Of a DNA stretch of 64,000 nt, positions 29,148 through 37,542 are shown in pieces. Within the stretch, counting starts at the first letter, position 1, and each line of letters begins with the position of its first letter. The stretch is from Candidatus Saccharimonadota bacterium. Lineage in GTDB: Bacteria > Patescibacteriota > Saccharimonadia > Saccharimonadales > JACDBH01. Position numbers and translations under genes: made by a program. The notes under the pieces were generated by a model. It was not told the DNA's origin. It was given only the letters and a program-made list of their open reading frames with translations, and did no database searches. The DNA is taken from positions 2,015 to 66,014 of the forward strand of contig JAQGGW010000003.1 in assembly GCA_028289135.1 (NCBI GenBank). Reading direction: 5' to 3'.

Positions 29148-30206
29148 TTAGGCCTTTTTAACTTCAACCGGCTTGTTCGCCTCAATGACCTTTTTAGCGA
29201 TCTCTTCCATGACTTTTGGATTGTCGCGGAGGTACTGCTTTGATGCTTCACGGCCCTGGCCGATTTTTGCGTCATTGTAAGCAAACCAGGCGCCGCTTTT
29301 TTCAACGATTTCTTTAGCAACGGCCAAATCAAGCACGTCGCCTTCTTTTGAAATGCCTTCGTTATACATAATGTCGAACTCAGCTTCTCTAAAAGGCGGC
29401 GCAACCTTGTTTTTTACAACCTTAACGCGGGTACGGTTGCCAATGACGGCATCCCCCGCTTTAATTTGTGAAATCCGTCGGATATCCATACGGAGGCTGG
29501 CATAGAACTTAAGCGCGTTACCACCAGTGGTTGTCTCCGGGTTGCCAAACATAACACCAATCTTCATACGAAGCTGGTTAATGAAAATAACGGTGCTTTT
29601 GCTTTTAGAAATAATAGCGGTGAGCTTACGAAGCGCCTGGCTCATCAGACGTGCCTGGAGACCCATGTGGCTGTCGCCCATGTCGCCTTCGATTTCGGCC
29701 TGTGGAACAAGCGCCGCAACAGAGTCAACCACAATCAGGTCAACGGCGTTTGAACGGACTAAAGTTTCAACAATTTCAAGTGCTTGTTCGCCGTTGTCTG
29801 GCTGTGAAACAAGCAAGTTGTCTAGGTTAACACCAATTTTTTGAGCGTATACAGGATCAAGTGCGTGTTCGGCGTCAATGAATGCCGCTACACCACCGCG
29901 TTTTTGAACTTCGGCAATTGCGTGCAGTGTTAGAGTTGTCTTACCAGAAGATTCAGGTCCGTAGACCTCAATGATACGGCCTTTTGGAATGCCGCCGCCA
30001 AGAGCAAGGTCTAGGCTTAGTGCGCCAGTTGGAAAGGTTTCGACATTAGCGTGGGATGTTTCGCCCAGGCGCATAATTGTACCTTTACCAAATTGCTTCT
30101 CGATAGTTTCTACAGCCAGGCCAAGTGCCTTGCCTTTACCGTCGAGCTTAGCTTCTGGCTCGTCGTGATTTGATGTTGTTGATGCGTCAGCTTGTGCTTT
30201 TACCAT
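29148..30206 (-). CDS. recA: recombinase RecA
   Basis: Walker [20 protein letters not shown] and the L1/L2 loop regions. 352 aa, RBS AAGGGG. Confidence 0.97.
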
Positions 30207-30451: not shown

Positions 30452-32266
30452 ATGCGTATTTCTGATGCACTTGTGAAGGAGTTGTTGCTCGAGGGTAAAA
30501 AAATTACTGCTGAGCAAATTAAAGCCGCCCACGATACGGCTGGTAACGAAAAGCTATCCCTGCAAGAAGCGGTTTTAAAAGCAAATCTGATCAGTGAAAA
30601 AGACTTGACCAAGCTTTACGCCGCCAAAATCGATGTTCCTTATATAGAACTCAATTCCAAAGAAATTAAGCGCGAGCTTCTAAAGCTTATCCCCGAACGT
30701 ATTGCCCGGCAGTATAATGTGGTGCTCTACGGTGTTGAGGCCGACGGCTCCAAGCTACTAGCCATGGATGACCCGGATGATATCCAAGCAGTTAACTTTT
30801 TGAAAAAAGAGCTCGGCAACGAGATCAAAGTCTCGATGGCCACCAAACAGGCTATTTTGCAGTCGCTTGACCAGTACCGAGGCAATATAAGTAGTGAGCT
30901 TACCAAAGTTATTTCGCCAGATGAAATTACCGACGAAGAAGACGAAGAAGTCAGCGAAGAAGACGTTGCCGAGGATTCACCGATTGCCCAAACCGTTAAT
31001 TTGCTTATTGAATACGCCGTAAAAGCTGGGGCATCGGACGTTCATATTGAACCGCGCGAAGGCCACGTTTTGGTGCGCTACCGGGTGGACGGCATTTTAA
31101 AAGAAGCCAACAAGCTGCCCAAAAAAGTCATGAATGCCCTGGTGAGCCGTATCAAAATCTTGAGCAACCTCAAAATTGACGAAAAGCGCGCGCCCCAGGA
31201 CGGCCGTTTTAAGATTGCCGCCAATGGCCAGGTCTATGCGCTGCGTGTCTCAACGCTGCCGATTGTAGACGGCGAAAAGGTGGTTATGCGTATTTTGAAC
31301 GAATCCAGCAAAGCTTTAACGCTTGAGGAGCTGGGATACTGGGGCTATTCGCTAAATGTCGTTAATAAAGCCATCGTCCAGCCGCACGGTATGATCCTGG
31401 TCACGGGGCCGACCGGTTCTGGCAAATCAACTAGCCTGTTTAGCGTGCTGTCGCTGCTAAATAACCCGAGCGTTAACATCTCAACAGTCGAAGACCCGGT
31501 TGAATACCGCATCCCGGGAACCAACCAAACCCAGGTTAACCCTGTAGCTGGCATGACGTTCGTAAACGGCCTAAGAGCCCTCCTCCGCCAAGACCCGAAC
31601 GTCATCATGGTTGGGGAAATCCGTGACGGCGAAACGGCTGACCTTGCTGTCCAGGCTGCCTTAACAGGACACCTTGTGTTTAGCACGCTTCACACCAACA
31701 ATGCCGCCACATGTCTGCCGCGTTTGCTCGACATGGGCATTGAAGCGTTTTTGATTGCCAGCACTGTCCGCTGTGTAGTGGGCCAGCGCCTTGTCCGGCG
31801 CCTCTGTGTGGACTGCCGCGAGAGTATCCAGCCTGATGCCGTTATATTGAAGCGGCTTCAAGAAGCATTCCACCTAGACGAAGCTGGCGGTATGGGGCAA
31901 ATCCATGAGCTTGAGAAGCAAGCGCTGGAAGGCGGGATTGGTAAAACAAACACCTCCACCGTTAGTAAAGCCAGCACGGCCGAGCTAAGTACCACCGAAA
32001 ACAGCATTAACCGGATCTGGAAAGCCCATGATGGAGGCTGCGACGCCTGCAGCCACACCGGCTACAGAGGCCGGATGGGCATTTATGAAGTGCTCGGCAA
32101 CACCCAGACTATCCAAAAACTGATTGTCGGCAACGCAACCAGCGATGTTATACAGGACGAATCCATAAAAGAAGGCATGATTACCATGCAGGTCGATGGG
32201 TTTATTAAGGCTTTGCGCGGGCAGACTTCGATTGAAGAAATTTTAAGAGTAACGAGTGAACGCTAA
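30452..32266 (+). CDS. pilB: type IV pilus assembly ATPase PilB (GspE family)
   Basis: N-terminal T2SSE_N-like repeats, Walker A GPTGSGKST, VGEIRD, and a tetracysteine CVDC...CDAC. 604 aa. Confidence 0.92.
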   Translation: MRISDALVKELLLEGKKITAEQIKAAHDTAGNEKLSLQEAVLKANLISEKDLTKLYAAKIDVPYIELNSKEIKRELLKLIPERIARQYNVVLYGVEADGSKLLAMDDPDDIQAVNFLKKELGNEIKVSMATKQAILQSLDQYRGNISSELTKVISPDEITDEEDEEVSEEDVAEDSPIAQTVNLLIEYAVKAGASDVHIEPREGHVLVRYRVDGILKEANKLPKKVMNALVSRIKILSNLKIDEKRAPQDGRFKIAANGQVYALRVSTLPIVDGEKVVMRILNESSKALTLEELGYWGYSLNVVNKAIVQPHGMILVTGPTGSGKSTSLFSVLSLLNNPSVNISTVEDPVEYRIPGTNQTQVNPVAGMTFVNGLRALLRQDPNVIMVGEIRDGETADLAVQAALTGHLVFSTLHTNNAATCLPRLLDMGIEAFLIASTVRCVVGQRLVRRLCVDCRESIQPDAVILKRLQEAFHLDEAGGMGQIHELEKQALEGGIGKTNTSTVSKASTAELSTTENSINRIWKAHDGGCDACSHTGYRGRMGIYEVLGNTQTIQKLIVGNATSDVIQDESIKEGMITMQVDGFIKALRGQTSIEEILRVTSER

Positions 32267-32475: not shown

Positions 32476-33702
32476 ATGCCTAAATTTACATATGCTGCAG
32501 TTAATAAAGCCGGTAAATCGATAACCGGAGCTGGCGAGTCTACCAGCCGCGACACCATGGCCGACACGCTTATCAAGCAAGGCCTGCGCCCGGTTACTAT
32601 AAAAGTTGCAAGTGAAAAAAAGGGTTTTAGCTCAAAATTAAAAAACTTTGGAAACAAAGTAAAACTTAAGGACTTGGTTATCTTTAGCCGCCAGATGTCC
32701 ACCATGATCTCGGCTGGCGTGCCGCTGACACGTGCGCTGTCGACCATGCAAACCCAGAGCACCAACAAATACTTCCAGACTGTCATTGCCGGCATCTCCC
32801 ACGACGTCGAAGGCGGTATGTCGCTCGGGGAAGCTTTTGGCAAATATCCCACCGTTTTTTCTGAGATTTATATCAACATGATCAAAGCCGGTGAAGCCGG
32901 CGGTATTTTGGATGACATTATGAAACGTCTGGCCACCCAGGTGGAACAAGACTCAAGCATGCGCAAAAAAGTTAAAGGCGCCATGACCTACCCGATCGTC
33001 ATCCTTACCGTCACTGTGATCGCATTCTTTGGAATCACGATGTTTGTCCTACCAAAAATCGGCAAAATTATCCTAGACCTCGGCGGCCCGAACGCCAAAC
33101 TGCCAATCTACACTGTCGCGATGCTTAACATTAGTGCTTTTATGCAGAAAAAAGGCGTCTTTATTTTTGTATTTTTGGTCATTTTTGTTTTCTTTGGGAT
33201 GAAATATATCAAAACGCCAAAGGGCAAATATAAGTTCCACTATGTTTTGCTAAAGATCCCTGTTCTTAAAGACATTATTATCAAAATTGCGGTTGCCCGT
33301 TTTGCCCGCACTTTTGCTTCGCTCATGACAGCTGGCGTTACAGTACTCGATGCGCTGGAAGTTACTGGCGGCGCCGTGGGCAATAAAGTCATCCAAAAAG
33401 AGCTGATTGAAGCCGCCAAAGAGGTAAAAAACGGTAAGCAGTTAAGTGAGCCGCTGAGCAAAAGCAAGAACTTCCCGCCGATTGTTTCACAGATGCTTGC
33501 CATCGGTGAAGAGACGGGACAGACCGATACAATTCTTGTGCGCGTCGCCGACTTCTACGAAGAAGAGGTTGCAACCGTCATCGACAGCCTGGCGTCTATT
33601 ATTGAACCGATCATGATTATCATTTTGGGCGCCGGCGTCGGGCTGATTGCTGCCAGCGTTATGGGCCCAATCGCCTCCCTGTCTAAAAACATTGGTGGAT
33701 AA
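32476..33702 (+). CDS. pilC: type IV pilus platform protein PilC (GspF family)
   Basis: Two T2SSF repeats (FSRQMSTMISAGVPL... and FARTFASLMTAGVTVL...) and 3 TM segments. 408 aa. Confidence 0.92.
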   Translation: MPKFTYAAVNKAGKSITGAGESTSRDTMADTLIKQGLRPVTIKVASEKKGFSSKLKNFGNKVKLKDLVIFSRQMSTMISAGVPLTRALSTMQTQSTNKYFQTVIAGISHDVEGGMSLGEAFGKYPTVFSEIYINMIKAGEAGGILDDIMKRLATQVEQDSSMRKKVKGAMTYPIVILTVTVIAFFGITMFVLPKIGKIILDLGGPNAKLPIYTVAMLNISAFMQKKGVFIFVFLVIFVFFGMKYIKTPKGKYKFHYVLLKIPVLKDIIIKIAVARFARTFASLMTAGVTVLDALEVTGGAVGNKVIQKELIEAAKEVKNGKQLSEPLSKSKNFPPIVSQMLAIGEETGQTDTILVRVADFYEEEVATVIDSLASIIEPIMIIILGAGVGLIAASVMGPIASLSKNIGG

Positions 33703-33729
33703 ATCTCACCGCTTTTTATCTTTCAAAAA

Positions 33730-33850: not shown

Positions 33851-33895
33851 GTTATGGGTCCGATCGCCTCCCTCTCCAAGAACATTGGTGGATAA
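33851..33895 (+). pseudogene. orphan second copy of the pilC 3' end (last 14 codons plus stop)
   Basis: 40 of 45 nt are identical to 33658-33702, and all 5 differences fall in codon third positions. Both copies encode VMGPIASLSKNIGG*. Confidence 0.7.
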
Positions 33896-33920
33896 AAAAA
33901 GGCTTTCCCAGAGAAAACTG

Positions 33921-33948
33921 TTGACTAGTGTGAGCTTATGCTTATAAT
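33921..33948 (+). promoter_or_regulatory. sigma70-type promoter for the pilin genes
   Basis: TTGACT-N16-TATAAT lies about 90 nt upstream of the pilin ATG. RBS GGAGG at 34021-34025. Confidence 0.6.
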
Positions 33949-34036
33949 CATGTGCAGATACTTACTGTCTACCCGGATAGTAGGTGGTCAAAGAAAATAA
34001 TTAAAACTCAACCAAATCAAGGAGGGTGGGCCCTAG

Positions 34037-34504
34037 ATGATTTCACTAAAAAATAAGCAATCTGGTTTTACAATCGTAGAACTCTTGATCGTAATTGTCG
34101 TTATCGGTATTTTGGCCGGTCTTGTCATTACGACCTTCAGCGGTATTCAACAAAAAGCTCGCGACACTGAACGCGAAACAGATATTAAGGCGCTACACGG
34201 CCAAATTGAAGCTTTCTGGGCACAGAAGGGTTATTACCCATCTTTGACAGACATGAACACGGCTTCATTCGTATCGACTAACCTCAAGGGCTTGGACGCA
34301 GGTGCGTTTAAGGATCCTAAAGGAAGCGTAAGCACTCTAGCAACTACGGCTGCTGCAAGCGTTTACTCATACGCCGTTACAAACACAGCTGGTACCACCT
34401 GCGAAGCAGATGACACCACTTGTTCCAAGTACGTTTTGACTGCTACCCTGGAAGGTACACTCAACGGTTCTGGCACGTTCGTCAAGAACAGCTTGAACAG
34501 CTAA
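34037..34504 (+). CDS. type IV (major) pilin, copy 1
   Basis: Class III signal MISLKNKQSG|FTIVELLIVIVVIGILAGLV with Glu+5. C-terminal Cys pair CEADDTTC. Has its own terminator. Confidence 0.9.
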   Translation: MISLKNKQSGFTIVELLIVIVVIGILAGLVITTFSGIQQKARDTERETDIKALHGQIEAFWAQKGYYPSLTDMNTASFVSTNLKGLDAGAFKDPKGSVSTLATTAAASVYSYAVTNTAGTTCEADDTTCSKYVLTATLEGTLNGSGTFVKNSLNS

Positions 34505-34517
34505 GTTTAATACTATT

Positions 34518-34565
34518 CCCCAAGCGTGAACCCCTAAAAAGGTATTCACGCTTGGGGGTTTTTAA
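34518..34565 (+). terminator. rho-independent terminator between the pilin genes
   Basis: A 13-bp stem CCCCAAGCGTGAA / TTCACGCTTGGGG followed by GTTTTT. Confidence 0.8.
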
Positions 34566-34584
34566 AATGTAAAAGGCATTATAA

Positions 34585-35058
34585 ATGATTAATCTCAACA
34601 AAAAGCAAAGCGGTTTCACGATTGTGGAACTTTTGATCGTCATCGTTGTTATCGGTATTTTGGCAGGACTTGTCATCACAACCTTTAGCGGCATCCAGCA
34701 AAAAGCTCGCGACACTGAACGCGAAACAGATATTAAGGCATTGCATGGTCAAATTGAAGCATTCTGGGCACAGAAGGGTTATTACCCATCTTTGACAGAC
34801 ATGAACAGCCAGGCTGCTGGCGGGTTCGTAGCTACAAACCTCAAGGGCTTGGACGCGGACTCATTTAAAGATCCTAAGGGCTCTTCGAACGCATTAGTCA
34901 CAGCACCGGCTGCAAATGCATACGCATATGCTGTTACTAACGCTGCTGGTACCACCTGCGAAGCAGATGACACCACATGCGCAAAGTACGTTTTGACTGC
35001 TACCTTGGAAGGTACGCTCAACGGATCTAGCACATTTGTTAAAAACAGCTTAAACTAA
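34585..35058 (+). CDS. type IV pilin, copy 2
   Basis: MINLNKKQSG|FTIVELLIV. Residues 7-74 are identical to copy 1, the middle is variable, and the C-terminus is conserved. Confidence 0.88.
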   Translation: MINLNKKQSGFTIVELLIVIVVIGILAGLVITTFSGIQQKARDTERETDIKALHGQIEAFWAQKGYYPSLTDMNSQAAGGFVATNLKGLDADSFKDPKGSSNALVTAPAANAYAYAVTNAAGTTCEADDTTCAKYVLTATLEGTLNGSSTFVKNSLN

Positions 35059-35077
35059 AGCGCGTTTTTCTTTAGTA

Positions 35078-35110
35078 AACGGGACTTCTTGATGGGGTCC
35101 CGTTTTAAAT
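35078..35110 (+). terminator. putative terminator after pilin 2
   Basis: AACGGGAC-loop-GTCCCGTT followed by TTAAATTTT. Confidence 0.55.
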
Positions 35111-35195
35111 TTTATATACCCCTAACATAAGCAATTTGTTATACTAATAGCAATACTTTACGTGTGGTTACAGAAGGGCACCCTGAACCGATTAG

Positions 35196-36266
35196 ATGAA
35201 CACTCAGAAACTGTTATATAAGGATAAACCACTCTTTGGTTTGGACATTGGTGCCAACAGTATTAAAGTCATGCAATTAACCCATGAGGGCAAGCAAATA
35301 AGCGTTAGCGGCTATGGGGTTATCCGCTTTGAAGAGACTGCTACCGAAAACGGAGCCATAACCGACTACGAAGGTCTTGCCAAAGCGATGCTGGAGCTTT
35401 TTGATAAACATATCAACGGCAAGATTACTACCCGCCGTGTAGCTGCCACCATTCCAGCTTCGAACGCCTATTCACGTGTTATGACCCTGCCCGCTTCGCT
35501 TTCCCGTAAAGAGCTGGATGAGGCTGTAAAGTTTGAAGCCGAGCAATATATTCCTATCCCGCTTGACGATCTTTATATCGACTATTCCTTGGGCACCACG
35601 ACGACAGACACGCGCGATGTCCTGGTGGTGGCCGTGCCTAAAAAAATTATTGATTCCTATACACGCTTCTTTGAACTTGTCGGCCTGGAAGTCTGTTCAA
35701 TAGAAACTACAATTTCCGCCTCCAGCCGCTTGATTGCAGCTACCGACCGTACCGCTCAAACGCCTAGCATTTTGATAGACCTGGGCTCGGTCTCTGTGGA
35801 TCTTAGTATTTATGACAAAATTTTGGTAGTAAACGGAACGGTTCCTGGCGGCGGCGATAACTTTTCGGAACAGATTAGAGACCGCCTGCAAGTCACATTG
35901 CCTGAAGCTAATACCATTAAGATTAACTACGGCCTCGGTAGAAGTAAAAAACAGGATGAGATCCGAGAAGCCCTGCGCGACCAGCTCGACCAGCTTGTCA
36001 AAGAAATCCGCCGGGTCGTGCGTTACTACGAAGAGCGTACCGAAGGAAAAAGTAGGATCGGCCAGATAATAACTATGGGCGGCGGCGCCAATATGCCAGG
36101 TTTGACAGACTTTTTAACCGATACTTTGCGCCTCCCAACCCGTATGTGTAACTTTTGGGGTAATTTTGACCTGCATAAGCTGCCTGTTCCAGATGAAGGC
36201 GACCGCTCAATATACGTAAGTGTGGCCGGCGCGGCGCTGCTTAATCCAAAGGAAATTTGGAAATGA
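35196..36266 (+). CDS. pilM: type IV pilus assembly protein PilM (actin-like ATPase fold)
   Basis: FGLDIGANSIKVMQL... and GGGANMPGL. 356 aa, directly upstream of pilN and pilO. Confidence 0.88.
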   Translation: MNTQKLLYKDKPLFGLDIGANSIKVMQLTHEGKQISVSGYGVIRFEETATENGAITDYEGLAKAMLELFDKHINGKITTRRVAATIPASNAYSRVMTLPASLSRKELDEAVKFEAEQYIPIPLDDLYIDYSLGTTTTDTRDVLVVAVPKKIIDSYTRFFELVGLEVCSIETTISASSRLIAATDRTAQTPSILIDLGSVSVDLSIYDKILVVNGTVPGGGDNFSEQIRDRLQVTLPEANTIKINYGLGRSKKQDEIREALRDQLDQLVKEIRRVVRYYEERTEGKSRIGQIITMGGGANMPGLTDFLTDTLRLPTRMCNFWGNFDLHKLPVPDEGDRSIYVSVAGAALLNPKEIWK

Positions 36267-36892
36267 GCACCCTAAACCTTATGCCGCCCGAGGCCAAGTC
36301 CTCAATTGCCTACGCCCGCCGCAACACACGCCTGGTACATTGGACCATTGGCTGTCTAGTCATAATTGTCGCTATGGCAGCAACTGTCGTCGTAGGCGGC
36401 TTTTATATCGACAACTCCAAGCAAAACCTTGCTTCTTCTATTAGTGCCACCCAAGACACCATCAAATCCCAAAAACTTGATAAGATCCAAGCTGAAGCAC
36501 AAAACCTTTCAGGCGGGGTCAAGCTTATCGTGCAAGTATTGTCTAAAGAAATCCAATTTTCAAAACTCCTCCAGCAGCTCGGCGGCCTGATGCCAACTGG
36601 AGCAACACTGGGGAGCGTACAGCTTTCCAACAAAATTAACGGCGCGCTTGACCTGACAGCAAACGCAGTCGACTACGAATCCGCTACCCAGGTGCAAGTA
36701 AACCTTCAGGATCCAAAAAATAACCTGTTTGATAAGGTCGACACCATCAGCGTTACCTGTAACGACGCTAATGCCGCCGCAAGCACAAGCTCCGTGGATT
36801 CACGCTACAAATGCCAGATAATTATCCGTGCCCTGTTTAAAGCCGACGCGGCTGTTACATTGCTAGCTAGCCCGGCAGGAGCTGCAAAATGA
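36263..36892 (+). CDS. pilN: type IV pilus assembly protein PilN
   Basis: ATG at 36263 overlaps the pilM stop (ATGA), with AAGGA 9 nt upstream. Single N-terminal TM helix and the LNLMPPE motif. The track start at 36257 is a TTG. Confidence 0.75.
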   Translation: MSTLNLMPPEAKSSIAYARRNTRLVHWTIGCLVIIVAMAATVVVGGFYIDNSKQNLASSISATQDTIKSQKLDKIQAEAQNLSGGVKLIVQVLSKEIQFSKLLQQLGGLMPTGATLGSVQLSNKINGALDLTANAVDYESATQVQVNLQDPKNNLFDKVDTISVTCNDANAAASTSSVDSRYKCQIIIRALFKADAAVTLLASPAGAAK

Positions 36893-37542
36893 GTCCAAAG
36901 CGCTTTTTCTTCGTAATGGTCGGCGTGTTTTCACTTAGTATTGTTGGTGGCGGGGCAATGCTTTATTTTGCTAATACAATGCTGCAAAAACGCTCAAGCA
37001 GTGTCGTCGACCTCAAACTGCAAAGCTCAGAAGTCGAGGCCCAGTTAACCGCATATCAAGCGGCCAAAAAAGACGTTCAGCAGTATTCGTATCTTAACGA
37101 CATTATTGCCAGCGCTTTACCGCAGGACAAAGACCAAGCCCGCACCGTACGTGAAATTTTCTTGTTAGCCAACCAGTCTGGCATTGCCATAAAATCCGTC
37201 CAGTTCCCAAGCTCATCACTAGGGGCGGTTGTTGCGCCTGTTGCCGGAGCTACACCTGCGGCCACTCCCGCAACCCCCGTAGCTGCTCCAACACCAGCCA
37301 TCACCCAGGCCAAGCCAGTTACCGGCTTAAACGGCGTATACTCGATAGAGACAATCGTAACGCCGTTTGCCGACGACAAGAACAACAAGGTTACCTATGC
37401 CCAGCTGATCAGCTTCCTGCAAAAGATCGAATCCAACCGCCGCGCCATGCAAGTAGCCAGCATCCAGCTTAACCCGCTCGGTCAAAACACTTCCGATTCC
37501 ATATCTTTCACGCTAACCCTTAATATTTTTATAAGGCCATAA
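36889..37542 (+). CDS. pilO: type IV pilus assembly protein PilO-like
   Basis: N-terminal TM helix, coiled coil, and an Ala/Pro/Thr linker. Assigned from its position after pilM and pilN, with a 4-nt overlap. Confidence 0.6.
   Translation: MSPKRFFFVMVGVFSLSIVGGGAMLYFANTMLQKRSSSVVDLKLQSSEVEAQLTAYQAAKKDVQQYSYLNDIIASALPQDKDQARTVREIFLLANQSGIAIKSVQFPSSSLGAVVAPVAGATPAATPATPVAAPTPAITQAKPVTGLNGVYSIETIVTPFADDKNNKVTYAQLISFLQKIESNRRAMQVASIQLNPLGQNTSDSISFTLTLNIFIRP

Follow-up and report, generated by a model that had tools for sequence, protein, structure and literature searches.

Introduction

Duplicated type IV pilin genes are known in several forms. In Neisseria gonorrhoeae and N. meningitidis, antigenic variation draws on many pilS copies that lack their 5' part and are never translated, and it requires a guanine quadruplex (G4) upstream of pilE; Kingella kingae (pilA1/pilA2) and Synechocystis (pilA1/pilA2) carry tandem major-pilin paralogs. 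Duplicated bacterial genes can also undergo concerted evolution through gene conversion, as tufA and tufB do. Here we analyze a tandem pair of type IV pilin genes in a 64-kb stretch of DNA (below, the window) from a metagenome-assembled genome (MAG) of Candidatus Saccharibacteria, a group whose members live attached to other bacteria. We refer to the pair as copy 1 (W_1) and copy 2 (W_2). Their patchwork of identity is probably explained by recombination between the two full-length paralogs, with their surface loops kept different.

The pilA2 and pilA1 genes of Legionella pneumophila form a tandem pair that is ~72% identical, with differences along the whole protein, and Legionella species have one, two or three pilA homologs (PMC13170364). 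The Saccharibacteria pair resembles it: both genes are full length, lie side by side on one strand and encode a class III signal peptide, copy number is 1-3 among relatives, and one copy is apparently the main subunit. Unlike the Legionella pair, it has an identical N-terminal half, a sharply bounded variable middle and exchanged tracts, and its host is an ultrasmall episymbiont of the Candidate Phyla Radiation (CPR)/Patescibacteria. A second parallel is type IV pilus (T4P) locus two of Nanosynbacter lyticus TM7x, likewise a member of the Saccharibacteria; this locus comprises recAX, pilB2, pilC2, pilM2, pilN2, pilO2 and a single pilin, PilJ (PMC11623550). By its published description, that locus matches ours in gene content and order (recombinase, pilB, pilC, pilin, pilM/N/O) and in having no retraction ATPase. 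PilJ is termed an orphan, has a GAST (Gly, Ala, Ser, Thr) content like that of cytoplasmic proteins and could not be deleted (PMC11623550), whereas our locus has two pilin copies with a GAST content of 39-41% and strong expression signals.

Results

Identity between the Two Pilin Genes Is Patchy

The two genes, separated by 80 nt, are 80.7% identical over 462 aligned positions of a codon alignment, and this identity is unevenly spread (Table 1). Residues 7-74 of the two proteins are identical. In the corresponding codons there are 22 synonymous and no non-synonymous differences, which affect 22 of the 66 degenerate codons and are clustered: nucleotide identity is 79% over codons 9-38, and two tracts of 41 and 46 nt, covering codons 39-51 and 60-74, are identical. 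The middle of the gene is divergent, and a further identical run, of 32 nt, marks the start of a similar 3' third. In the proteins, the final 38 aligned residues carry 2 substitutions; the net length difference of 2 residues arises from a 3-residue indel after about residue 76 minus one additional C-terminal residue in copy 1.

An initial annotation, made from the DNA alone, had described residues 7-74 as identical and the C-terminal ends as nearly so, the codons of the transmembrane helix as rich in synonymous changes, the middle as divergent with a 2-residue length difference, and two exact runs of 41 and about 46 nt. The codon alignment agrees with this description in every respect, and both runs lie where they had been placed.

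When the differences were shuffled among degenerate codons, the longest clean run had p = 0.026 and the two longest taken jointly had p = 0.0006; a runs test on the synonymous differences in codons 7-74 gave z = -2.6. Three other causes were considered and rejected. Synonymous-site constraint is contradicted by the variability of synonymous sites among nine orthologs, which is 0.44 in the identical patches and 0.40 in the transmembrane codons; a permutation weighted by this variability still gives p = 0.0006. Codon-usage selection on a highly expressed copy is contradicted by a measure like the codon adaptation index (CAI), which is 0.66 and 0.68 in the two copies, and by an even split, 11 vs 11, at the differing codons. 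RNA structure does not underlie the 41-nt run, for which comparison with shuffled sequences gave z = 0.2 and -0.1 in the two copies. We conclude that the patchwork is not due to chance, synonymous-site constraint, codon bias or RNA structure.

Segments of Copy 1 Have Discordant Relationships

Comparison with relatives gave further evidence of recombination. The relatives' loci, designated by L-numbers, were obtained through protein look-ups and scans of many assemblies, and all come from Saccharibacteria/Saccharimonadales MAGs. The closest genome is that of L081. Its flanking genes are 79-82% identical to those of the window in nucleotide sequence, and the proportion of differing synonymous sites (pS) in pilB, pilC and pilM is 0.69-0.75, which is essentially saturated. 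Over the first 52 codons of the pilin, by comparison, pS between copy 1 and its L081 ortholog (L081_1) is 0.08 (34037-34192 vs L081 4001-4156). Codons 1-51 of these two genes are 98-100% identical and codons 118-155 are 75% identical; the near-identity reaches ~45 nt into the 5' untranslated region (UTR).

Synonymous-site trees conflict in the same way: the first 52 codons place copy 1 nearer to the L081 ortholog than to copy 2, and the last 38 place it nearer to copy 2 than to any ortholog. A 3SEQ-like triplet maximum-descent test, with copy 1 modeled as L081-like at its 5' end and copy-2-like at its 3' end, gave p <= 1e-4, and Fisher tests at synonymous sites gave p = 3e-5 for the 5' region and p = 4e-4 for the 3' region. 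Because the segments have discordant relationships, recombination is required, whatever the order of events. Uniform divergence along the genes once aligned with orthologs, the pattern that would have counted against the initial annotation, is not what we found.

These results also bear on the idea that no recombination occurred, and that the pattern reflects duplication and ordinary divergence with uneven mutation or selection, or else a chimeric metagenome assembly. The shortness of the identical runs would suit this idea, as would the high conservation, in all relatives, of the protein encoded by the helix part; moreover, the source of the window is a MAG, and tandem near-repeats pose difficulties for assembly. 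However, the patches are as variable at synonymous sites as their neighbors, neither codon bias nor RNA structure distinguishes them, and synonymous sites show significant discordance in both directions. Arrays with distinct intergenic terminators are also present in independent assemblies from different samples (L083, L088, L090/L091/L096 and L100). As for an assembly artifact, runs of 41-46 nt are much shorter than the genes, which, judging from length alone, argues against collapse or joining. We consider it very improbable that the pattern arose without recombination.

Copy Number and Mosaic Pattern Vary among Relatives

The locus holds one pilin in L081/L082, L084-L087, L089, L092, L093-L095, L002 and L164-L166, two in L083, L090/L091/L096 and L100, and three in L088. 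The paralogs of L083 have a pS of 0.08 in the 5' half and 0.55-0.58 elsewhere (Fisher p = 6e-8). In L088 (2283-3862), a stretch of 410 nt is identical between copies 1 and 2; copy 3 has 73% identity to copy 1. Identity is patchy in the L100 pair, and neither the L090 nor the L098 pair shows homogenization. Of the informative sites in the quartet W_1, W_2, L083_1 and L083_2, 37 group the genes by genome, 7 by position and 4 otherwise. The leader ends in KKQ in the second copies of three genomes vs KNKQ in first copies; together with the 7 quartet sites, this is a faint sign that the duplication is old and that concerted evolution came after it. Because relatives carry one to three copies with differing mosaic patterns, duplication, loss and conversion are probably ongoing at the locus, and alleles are probably imported from other lineages as well.

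Some further features of these relatives deserve mention. Copies 1 and 2 of L088 differ in the leader, and copy 2 as called begins MKKNQSGF. In L100 (163-630 of Ga0207703_10291565), the first copy is frameshifted in the variable middle relative to an intact gene on another contig (P0004), which reflects either a sequencing error or a pseudogenized first copy. The relatives' contigs often end in or near the pilin (L001, 99 nt into the gene; L106, L151, L155, L157 and L161). Such breaks are expected if tandem paralogs or strain variants disrupt assembly, and pilin copies are probably under-counted in MAGs.

In 80 species representatives of GTDB, where a further pilin follows pilC it is as a rule an unrelated protein of minor type, 17-33% identical to the first, which implies that the near-identical pair is limited to the close relatives that protein look-ups identified. 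In distant Saccharibacteria (L005, L010, L015, L019, L020 and others), pilin-like genes of ~130-140 aa and ~240 aa follow the pilin; these are probably minor pilins and are lacking at the window locus. A metagenome scan for strain-level relatives of copy 2 returned a best match of 85% identity and no population series.

Conserved Tracts Were Likely Copied from Copy 1 into Copy 2

The sequence shared by the two 100% patches is 93-97% identical to first-copy orthologs and matches their consensus. Over codons 9-38, copy 2 is the outlier, being 73-81% identical to every sequence compared, whereas first copies are 91-98% alike. Because the patches match the first-copy consensus, the likely direction of transfer is from copy 1 into copy 2, with short parts of the more divergent copy 2 overwritten. 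Exchange in this direction makes the conserved helix more uniform, and we see no evidence that it diversifies the expressed gene.

The mosaic could instead be mainly inter-lineage, with natural transformation importing pilin alleles or fragments into either copy. The near-identity of the copy 1 5' end and adjoining UTR to L081, between genomes with saturated flanking genes, is what such import would produce, and in several lineages the 5' ends of first copies agree at 91-98% of positions. This conservation is not accounted for by codon bias, and the near-identical 5' coding region points to inter-lineage exchange or to an unknown constraint. In addition, loop types are shuffled between array positions, as the 'SQAAGGF' type of copy 2 is also seen in L164 and L166, whose only pilin gene is promoter-proximal; a relic of the pilC end beside the pilin promoter (described below) resembles an import scar; and Saccharibacteria are reported to be naturally competent (PMC10187176). 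Import does not readily account for the 3' third, which is 88% identical between the copies vs at most 82% to any sampled sequence, for two patches that are 100% identical within this genome alone, or for the L083 and L088 paralogs, which group by genome too. We therefore think it unlikely that the mosaic is mainly of inter-lineage origin. This source is nevertheless compatible with intragenomic conversion and can act alongside it. Exchange within the genome is favored by the 3' third and the two identical patches, and exchange between lineages by the copy 1 5' end; the latter may contribute too, and the two are not fully separable.

The Divergent Middle Encodes a Variable, Probably Surface-Exposed Segment

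In 68 relatives, column entropy averages 1.16 bits over residues 75-117 and 0.41 bits in helix alpha1, and indel hot spots in the family lie after residues 76 and 95-100. In an AlphaFold model, the variable residues map to the alpha-beta loop and the first strand, and in solved type IV pilins the alpha-beta loop region forms the filament surface. The suggestion, made at the outset, that the middle is variable is upheld, and its position on the surface is probable. Between the two copies, the non-synonymous counterpart of pS (pN) is 0.21 in the middle and 0.02-0.04 in the flanks. In the middle pS is 0.75 and saturated, and recent transfer of the variable part is not visible. In both flanks dN/dS of copy 2 vs copy 1 is ~0.04: copy 2 is under strong purifying selection.

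We also considered programmed antigenic variation like that of Neisseria pilE/pilS, with copy 2 as a storage cassette for copy 1, since the initial annotation had likened the pair to pilin variation systems. The two arrangements have much in common. Short, non-reciprocal tracts pass between pilin copies (RecA-dependent in Neisseria; presumed to be so here), conserved stretches flank variable ones, which is a geometry suited to cassette exchange, and a promoter-less copy, here behind a strong terminator, lies downstream of the expressed gene. recA is adjacent, and the MAG contigs of relatives often break inside the gene, as they would in heterogeneous populations. However, copy 2 is complete, with a start codon, leader, transmembrane helix and Shine-Dalgarno-like motif, and it is selected as a protein. 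Further pilin fragments were not found in the 64-kb window by blastn or tblastn, and the G4 motif (G3+N1-7 x4) was not found on either strand of the whole window. The saturated middles give no sign of recent transfer, the tracts appear to run from copy 1 into copy 2, and the single extra copy would give a repertoire of two. The likeness to pilin variation systems does not hold up, and a cassette role for copy 2 is hardly credible.

Copy 1 Carries Strong Expression Signals

We compared the leader of copy 1 (window 33921-34036) with the upstream regions of L081, L083, L084, L088-L090, L092 and L093. Both promoter hexamers are conserved in 9 species, the 5' UTR stem-loop, which begins just past the probable transcription start, has six compensatory pairs across 9 species, and AAGGAGGGTGGGCC, before the copy 1 ATG, is almost invariant in 9 species. 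No Rfam match at E <= 1 was found for the 5' UTR or the intergenic spacer. The stem-loop may stabilize the mRNA or regulate it.

Upstream of copy 2 there is a weak Shine-Dalgarno-like motif, and comparable motifs, AAAGGT and AAGAGGT, precede the second copies in L083 and L100. We found no plus-strand promoter-like site between 33949 and 35242. A leaderless start of copy 2 was rejected, as an AT-rich hexamer abuts the ATG. The second and third copies of other genomes have the same signal layout. The initial annotation had assigned each gene its own terminator, and a clear promoter and ribosome-binding site (RBS) to copy 1 alone; the terminators and promoter stand, and the last point needs the qualification that copy 2 has its weak AAAAGG. 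Given the purifying selection on it, copy 2 is probably translated, and probably from read-through transcripts. A separate pilM promoter follows the last pilin terminator, implying that the pilin gene or genes form their own transcription unit inside the pilus locus.

Both Genes Encode Type IV Pilins within a Pilus Assembly Locus

Both copies have the prepilin leader ...KQSG|FTIVE, a class III signal peptide, and match PF07963 above the curated cut-off; G10, F11 and E15 of the methylation motif are invariant across the 68 relatives. Database annotation of both proteins reads 'fimbrial protein pilin'. An AlphaFold2 model of the pilin (predicted local distance difference test, pLDDT, 89) has a lollipop fold with a helix at 13-64, short loop helices and strands at 109-115, 131-142 and 145-151, residues 65-108 being the alpha-beta loop. 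A fold search of the PDB returned type IV pilins and pseudopilins as the sole meaningful matches, all weak (template modeling score, TM, 0.4-0.53), and did not find a close structure for the head domain; profile matches to pilins cover the helix part alone. Two cysteines just 7 residues apart, C122 and C129 in copy 1 numbering, are candidates for a C-terminal disulfide; at least 90% of relatives have the former and 100% the latter. By motif, fold model and neighboring assembly genes, both genes encode type IV pilins (T4a-like). Both copies look like major pilins: their GAST content of 41% (copy 1) and 39% (copy 2), within the 38-47% reported for major pilins (PMC11623550), and the strong expression signals suggest this. 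The CPR 'Pam' pilus, described in a preprint, was considered as a relative and rejected, being an unrelated donor-strand-exchange pilus.

The gene order at the locus is recA | pilB-pilC-pilin-pilin-pilM-pilN-pilO, with recA divergent upstream of pilB (Table 1). The syntenic open reading frame in L081, L083, L084, L089, L092 and L093 has the Pfam domains RecA_N and RecA_C. A relic of the pilC 3' end lies 193 nt past the real pilC end and ~24 nt ahead of the pilin -35 box. It differs from its counterpart at 5 positions, all 5 of them third codon positions of the pilC frame. Because the true pilC stop in L083 and L084 has the same distance from the promoter as the relic, we read the relic as a probable recombination or insertion scar at the pilC/pilin boundary.

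Table 1. Features of the pilin pair and its surroundings, in window coordinates
Feature	Position	Strand	Details
recA, divergent neighbor of the pilus operon	29148-30206	-	translation is a RecA sequence
pilB-type assembly ATPase	30452-32266	+	Pfam T2SSE, E=1.8e-126, plus MshEN
pilC-type platform protein	32476-33702	+	Pfam T2SSF, E=1.2e-59
46-nt relic of the pilC 3' end (VMGPIASLSKNIGG and stop)	33851-33896	+	89% identical to 33658-33703
sigma-70-type promoter of copy 1, TTGACT-16-TATAAT	33921-33948	+	11/12 consensus positions
5' UTR stem-loop of copy 1 mRNA	33957-33989	+	within minimum-free-energy fold
Strong Shine-Dalgarno and conserved spacer AAGGAGGGTGGGCCCTAG	34019-34036	+	AAGGAGG at 34019-34025
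Pilin copy 1, type IV major-pilin-like (MDB5182552.1)	34037-34504	+	155 aa; N_methyl, E=1.8e-8
41-nt tract	34151-34191	+	identical to 34699-34739 (codons 39-51)
46-nt tract, ending ...GACATGAACA	34214-34259	+	identical to 34762-34807 (codons 60-74)
Variable middle of copy 1 (residues 75-117; alpha-beta loop, first strand)	34259-34387	+	65% nucleotide identity to copy 2
32-nt identical run	34388-34419	+	identical to 34945-34976; absent from the initial annotation
3' third of copy 1	34388-34498	+	88% to copy 2, <=82% to any ortholog
Intrinsic terminator after copy 1	34517-34563	+	G+C-rich hairpin 34517-34558 (inverted repeat) plus T5; -30.7 kcal/mol, z = -5.7
Weak Shine-Dalgarno-like AAAAGG	34571-34576	+	8 nt upstream of copy 2 ATG
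Pilin copy 2, full-length paralog without own promoter (MDB5182553.1)	34585-35058	+	157 aa; N_methyl, E=1.7e-8
Intrinsic terminator after copy 2	35077-35118	+	hairpin 35077-35105, -18.1 kcal/mol
Extended -10 element TTTGTTATACT of separate pilM promoter	35135-35145	+	conserved after the last pilin copy, 9 loci
pilM, pilN and pilO alignment-complex genes	35196-37542	+	Pfam PilM_2, E=1.2e-38; PilN and PilO matches weak

Discussion

Our data favor, with reasonable confidence, recombination between tandem full-length pilin paralogs whose surface loops are kept different. In the mechanism that we propose, copy 1 would be the main subunit, as its promoter, 5' stem-loop and strong RBS suggest, and copy 2, going by its signals, would be made at a lower level through terminator read-through. 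Sharing the same helix alpha1, both subunits would fit one assembly machine and filament core and would differ in the alpha-beta loop and first strands on the filament surface. Non-reciprocal homologous recombination, that is, gene conversion that is presumably RecA-dependent, would copy short tracts between the genes: at least two tracts of ~41-46 nt in the part encoding the C-terminal half of the helix (alpha1-C), with copy 1 the most likely donor and copy 2 the recipient. A large part of the 3' third would also have been exchanged, with the surface-coding middle left distinct. The initial annotation had proposed short-tract gene conversion, and the mosaic recombination it implies is borne out by the triplet test; some of the exchange, however, may be inter-lineage.

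The outcome resembles concerted evolution that is partial and leaves a surface segment untouched, and not cassette-type variation. As in tufA/tufB, paralog segments are closer to each other than to orthologs, and the tracts are short and homology-dependent; unlike in tufA/tufB, homogenization is partial and leaves two surface variants on one scaffold in place of identical genes. The locus would not lack the means for recombination, with recA adjacent to it and the pilC-end relic upstream of the pilin promoter.

Several points weigh against this interpretation. The identical tracts, at 41 and 46 nt, are short, and the sole discriminator between two events and one ~109-nt tract with patchy repair is a set of 5 differences in the 22 nt between them. 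A GENECONV-like permutation test, the kind of check proposed with the initial annotation for the pair plus orthologs, gave p = 0.0065 for the pair alone, a value that is acceptable for a pre-specified pair and is lost after correction over all 105 pairs. Synonymous saturation between species makes dN/dS of the middle inestimable, so positive or diversifying selection cannot be claimed there. Lineage-specific duplications plus import of outside alleles could mimic concerted evolution. The expression of copy 2 is something that we infer wholly. Finally, both pilins are singletons at 90% identity among ~15 billion proteins, and the main caveat is that all of the evidence derives from the single metagenome assembly of this genome.

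That pilin paralogs recombine has long been known from other bacteria; what is new here is its extension to a CPR episymbiont group, and a literature search for gene conversion in tandem pilins found nothing specific. As contigs break at the pilin, pilin content is probably under-counted in surveys of CPR genomes. Another possible use of the locus is as a marker at the strain level.

Cultured strains of Saccharibacteria are few; in them, host binding, competition and motility all depend on type IV pili (PMC11623550, PMC9894109), and genetic tools for the group are available (PMC10633639). If changes in copy number, exchange between copies and exchange between lineages make the pilin surface the fastest-changing part of this locus, it would be a candidate for what sets host range in a large group of uncultured bacteria. 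A more speculative idea, which we put forward as a distinctly long shot, is that arrays of one to three full-length pilins provide built-in pilus variation in environmental Saccharibacteria, read-through setting the ratio of subunits, short-tract conversion preserving the compatibility of the filament core, and conversion plus import by natural transformation reshuffling the loop. If true, such an array strategy would tune which bacteria can be bound as hosts or help to evade phages that use the pilus, and would be a strategy, in CPR bacteria, distinct from the silent cassettes of Neisseria.

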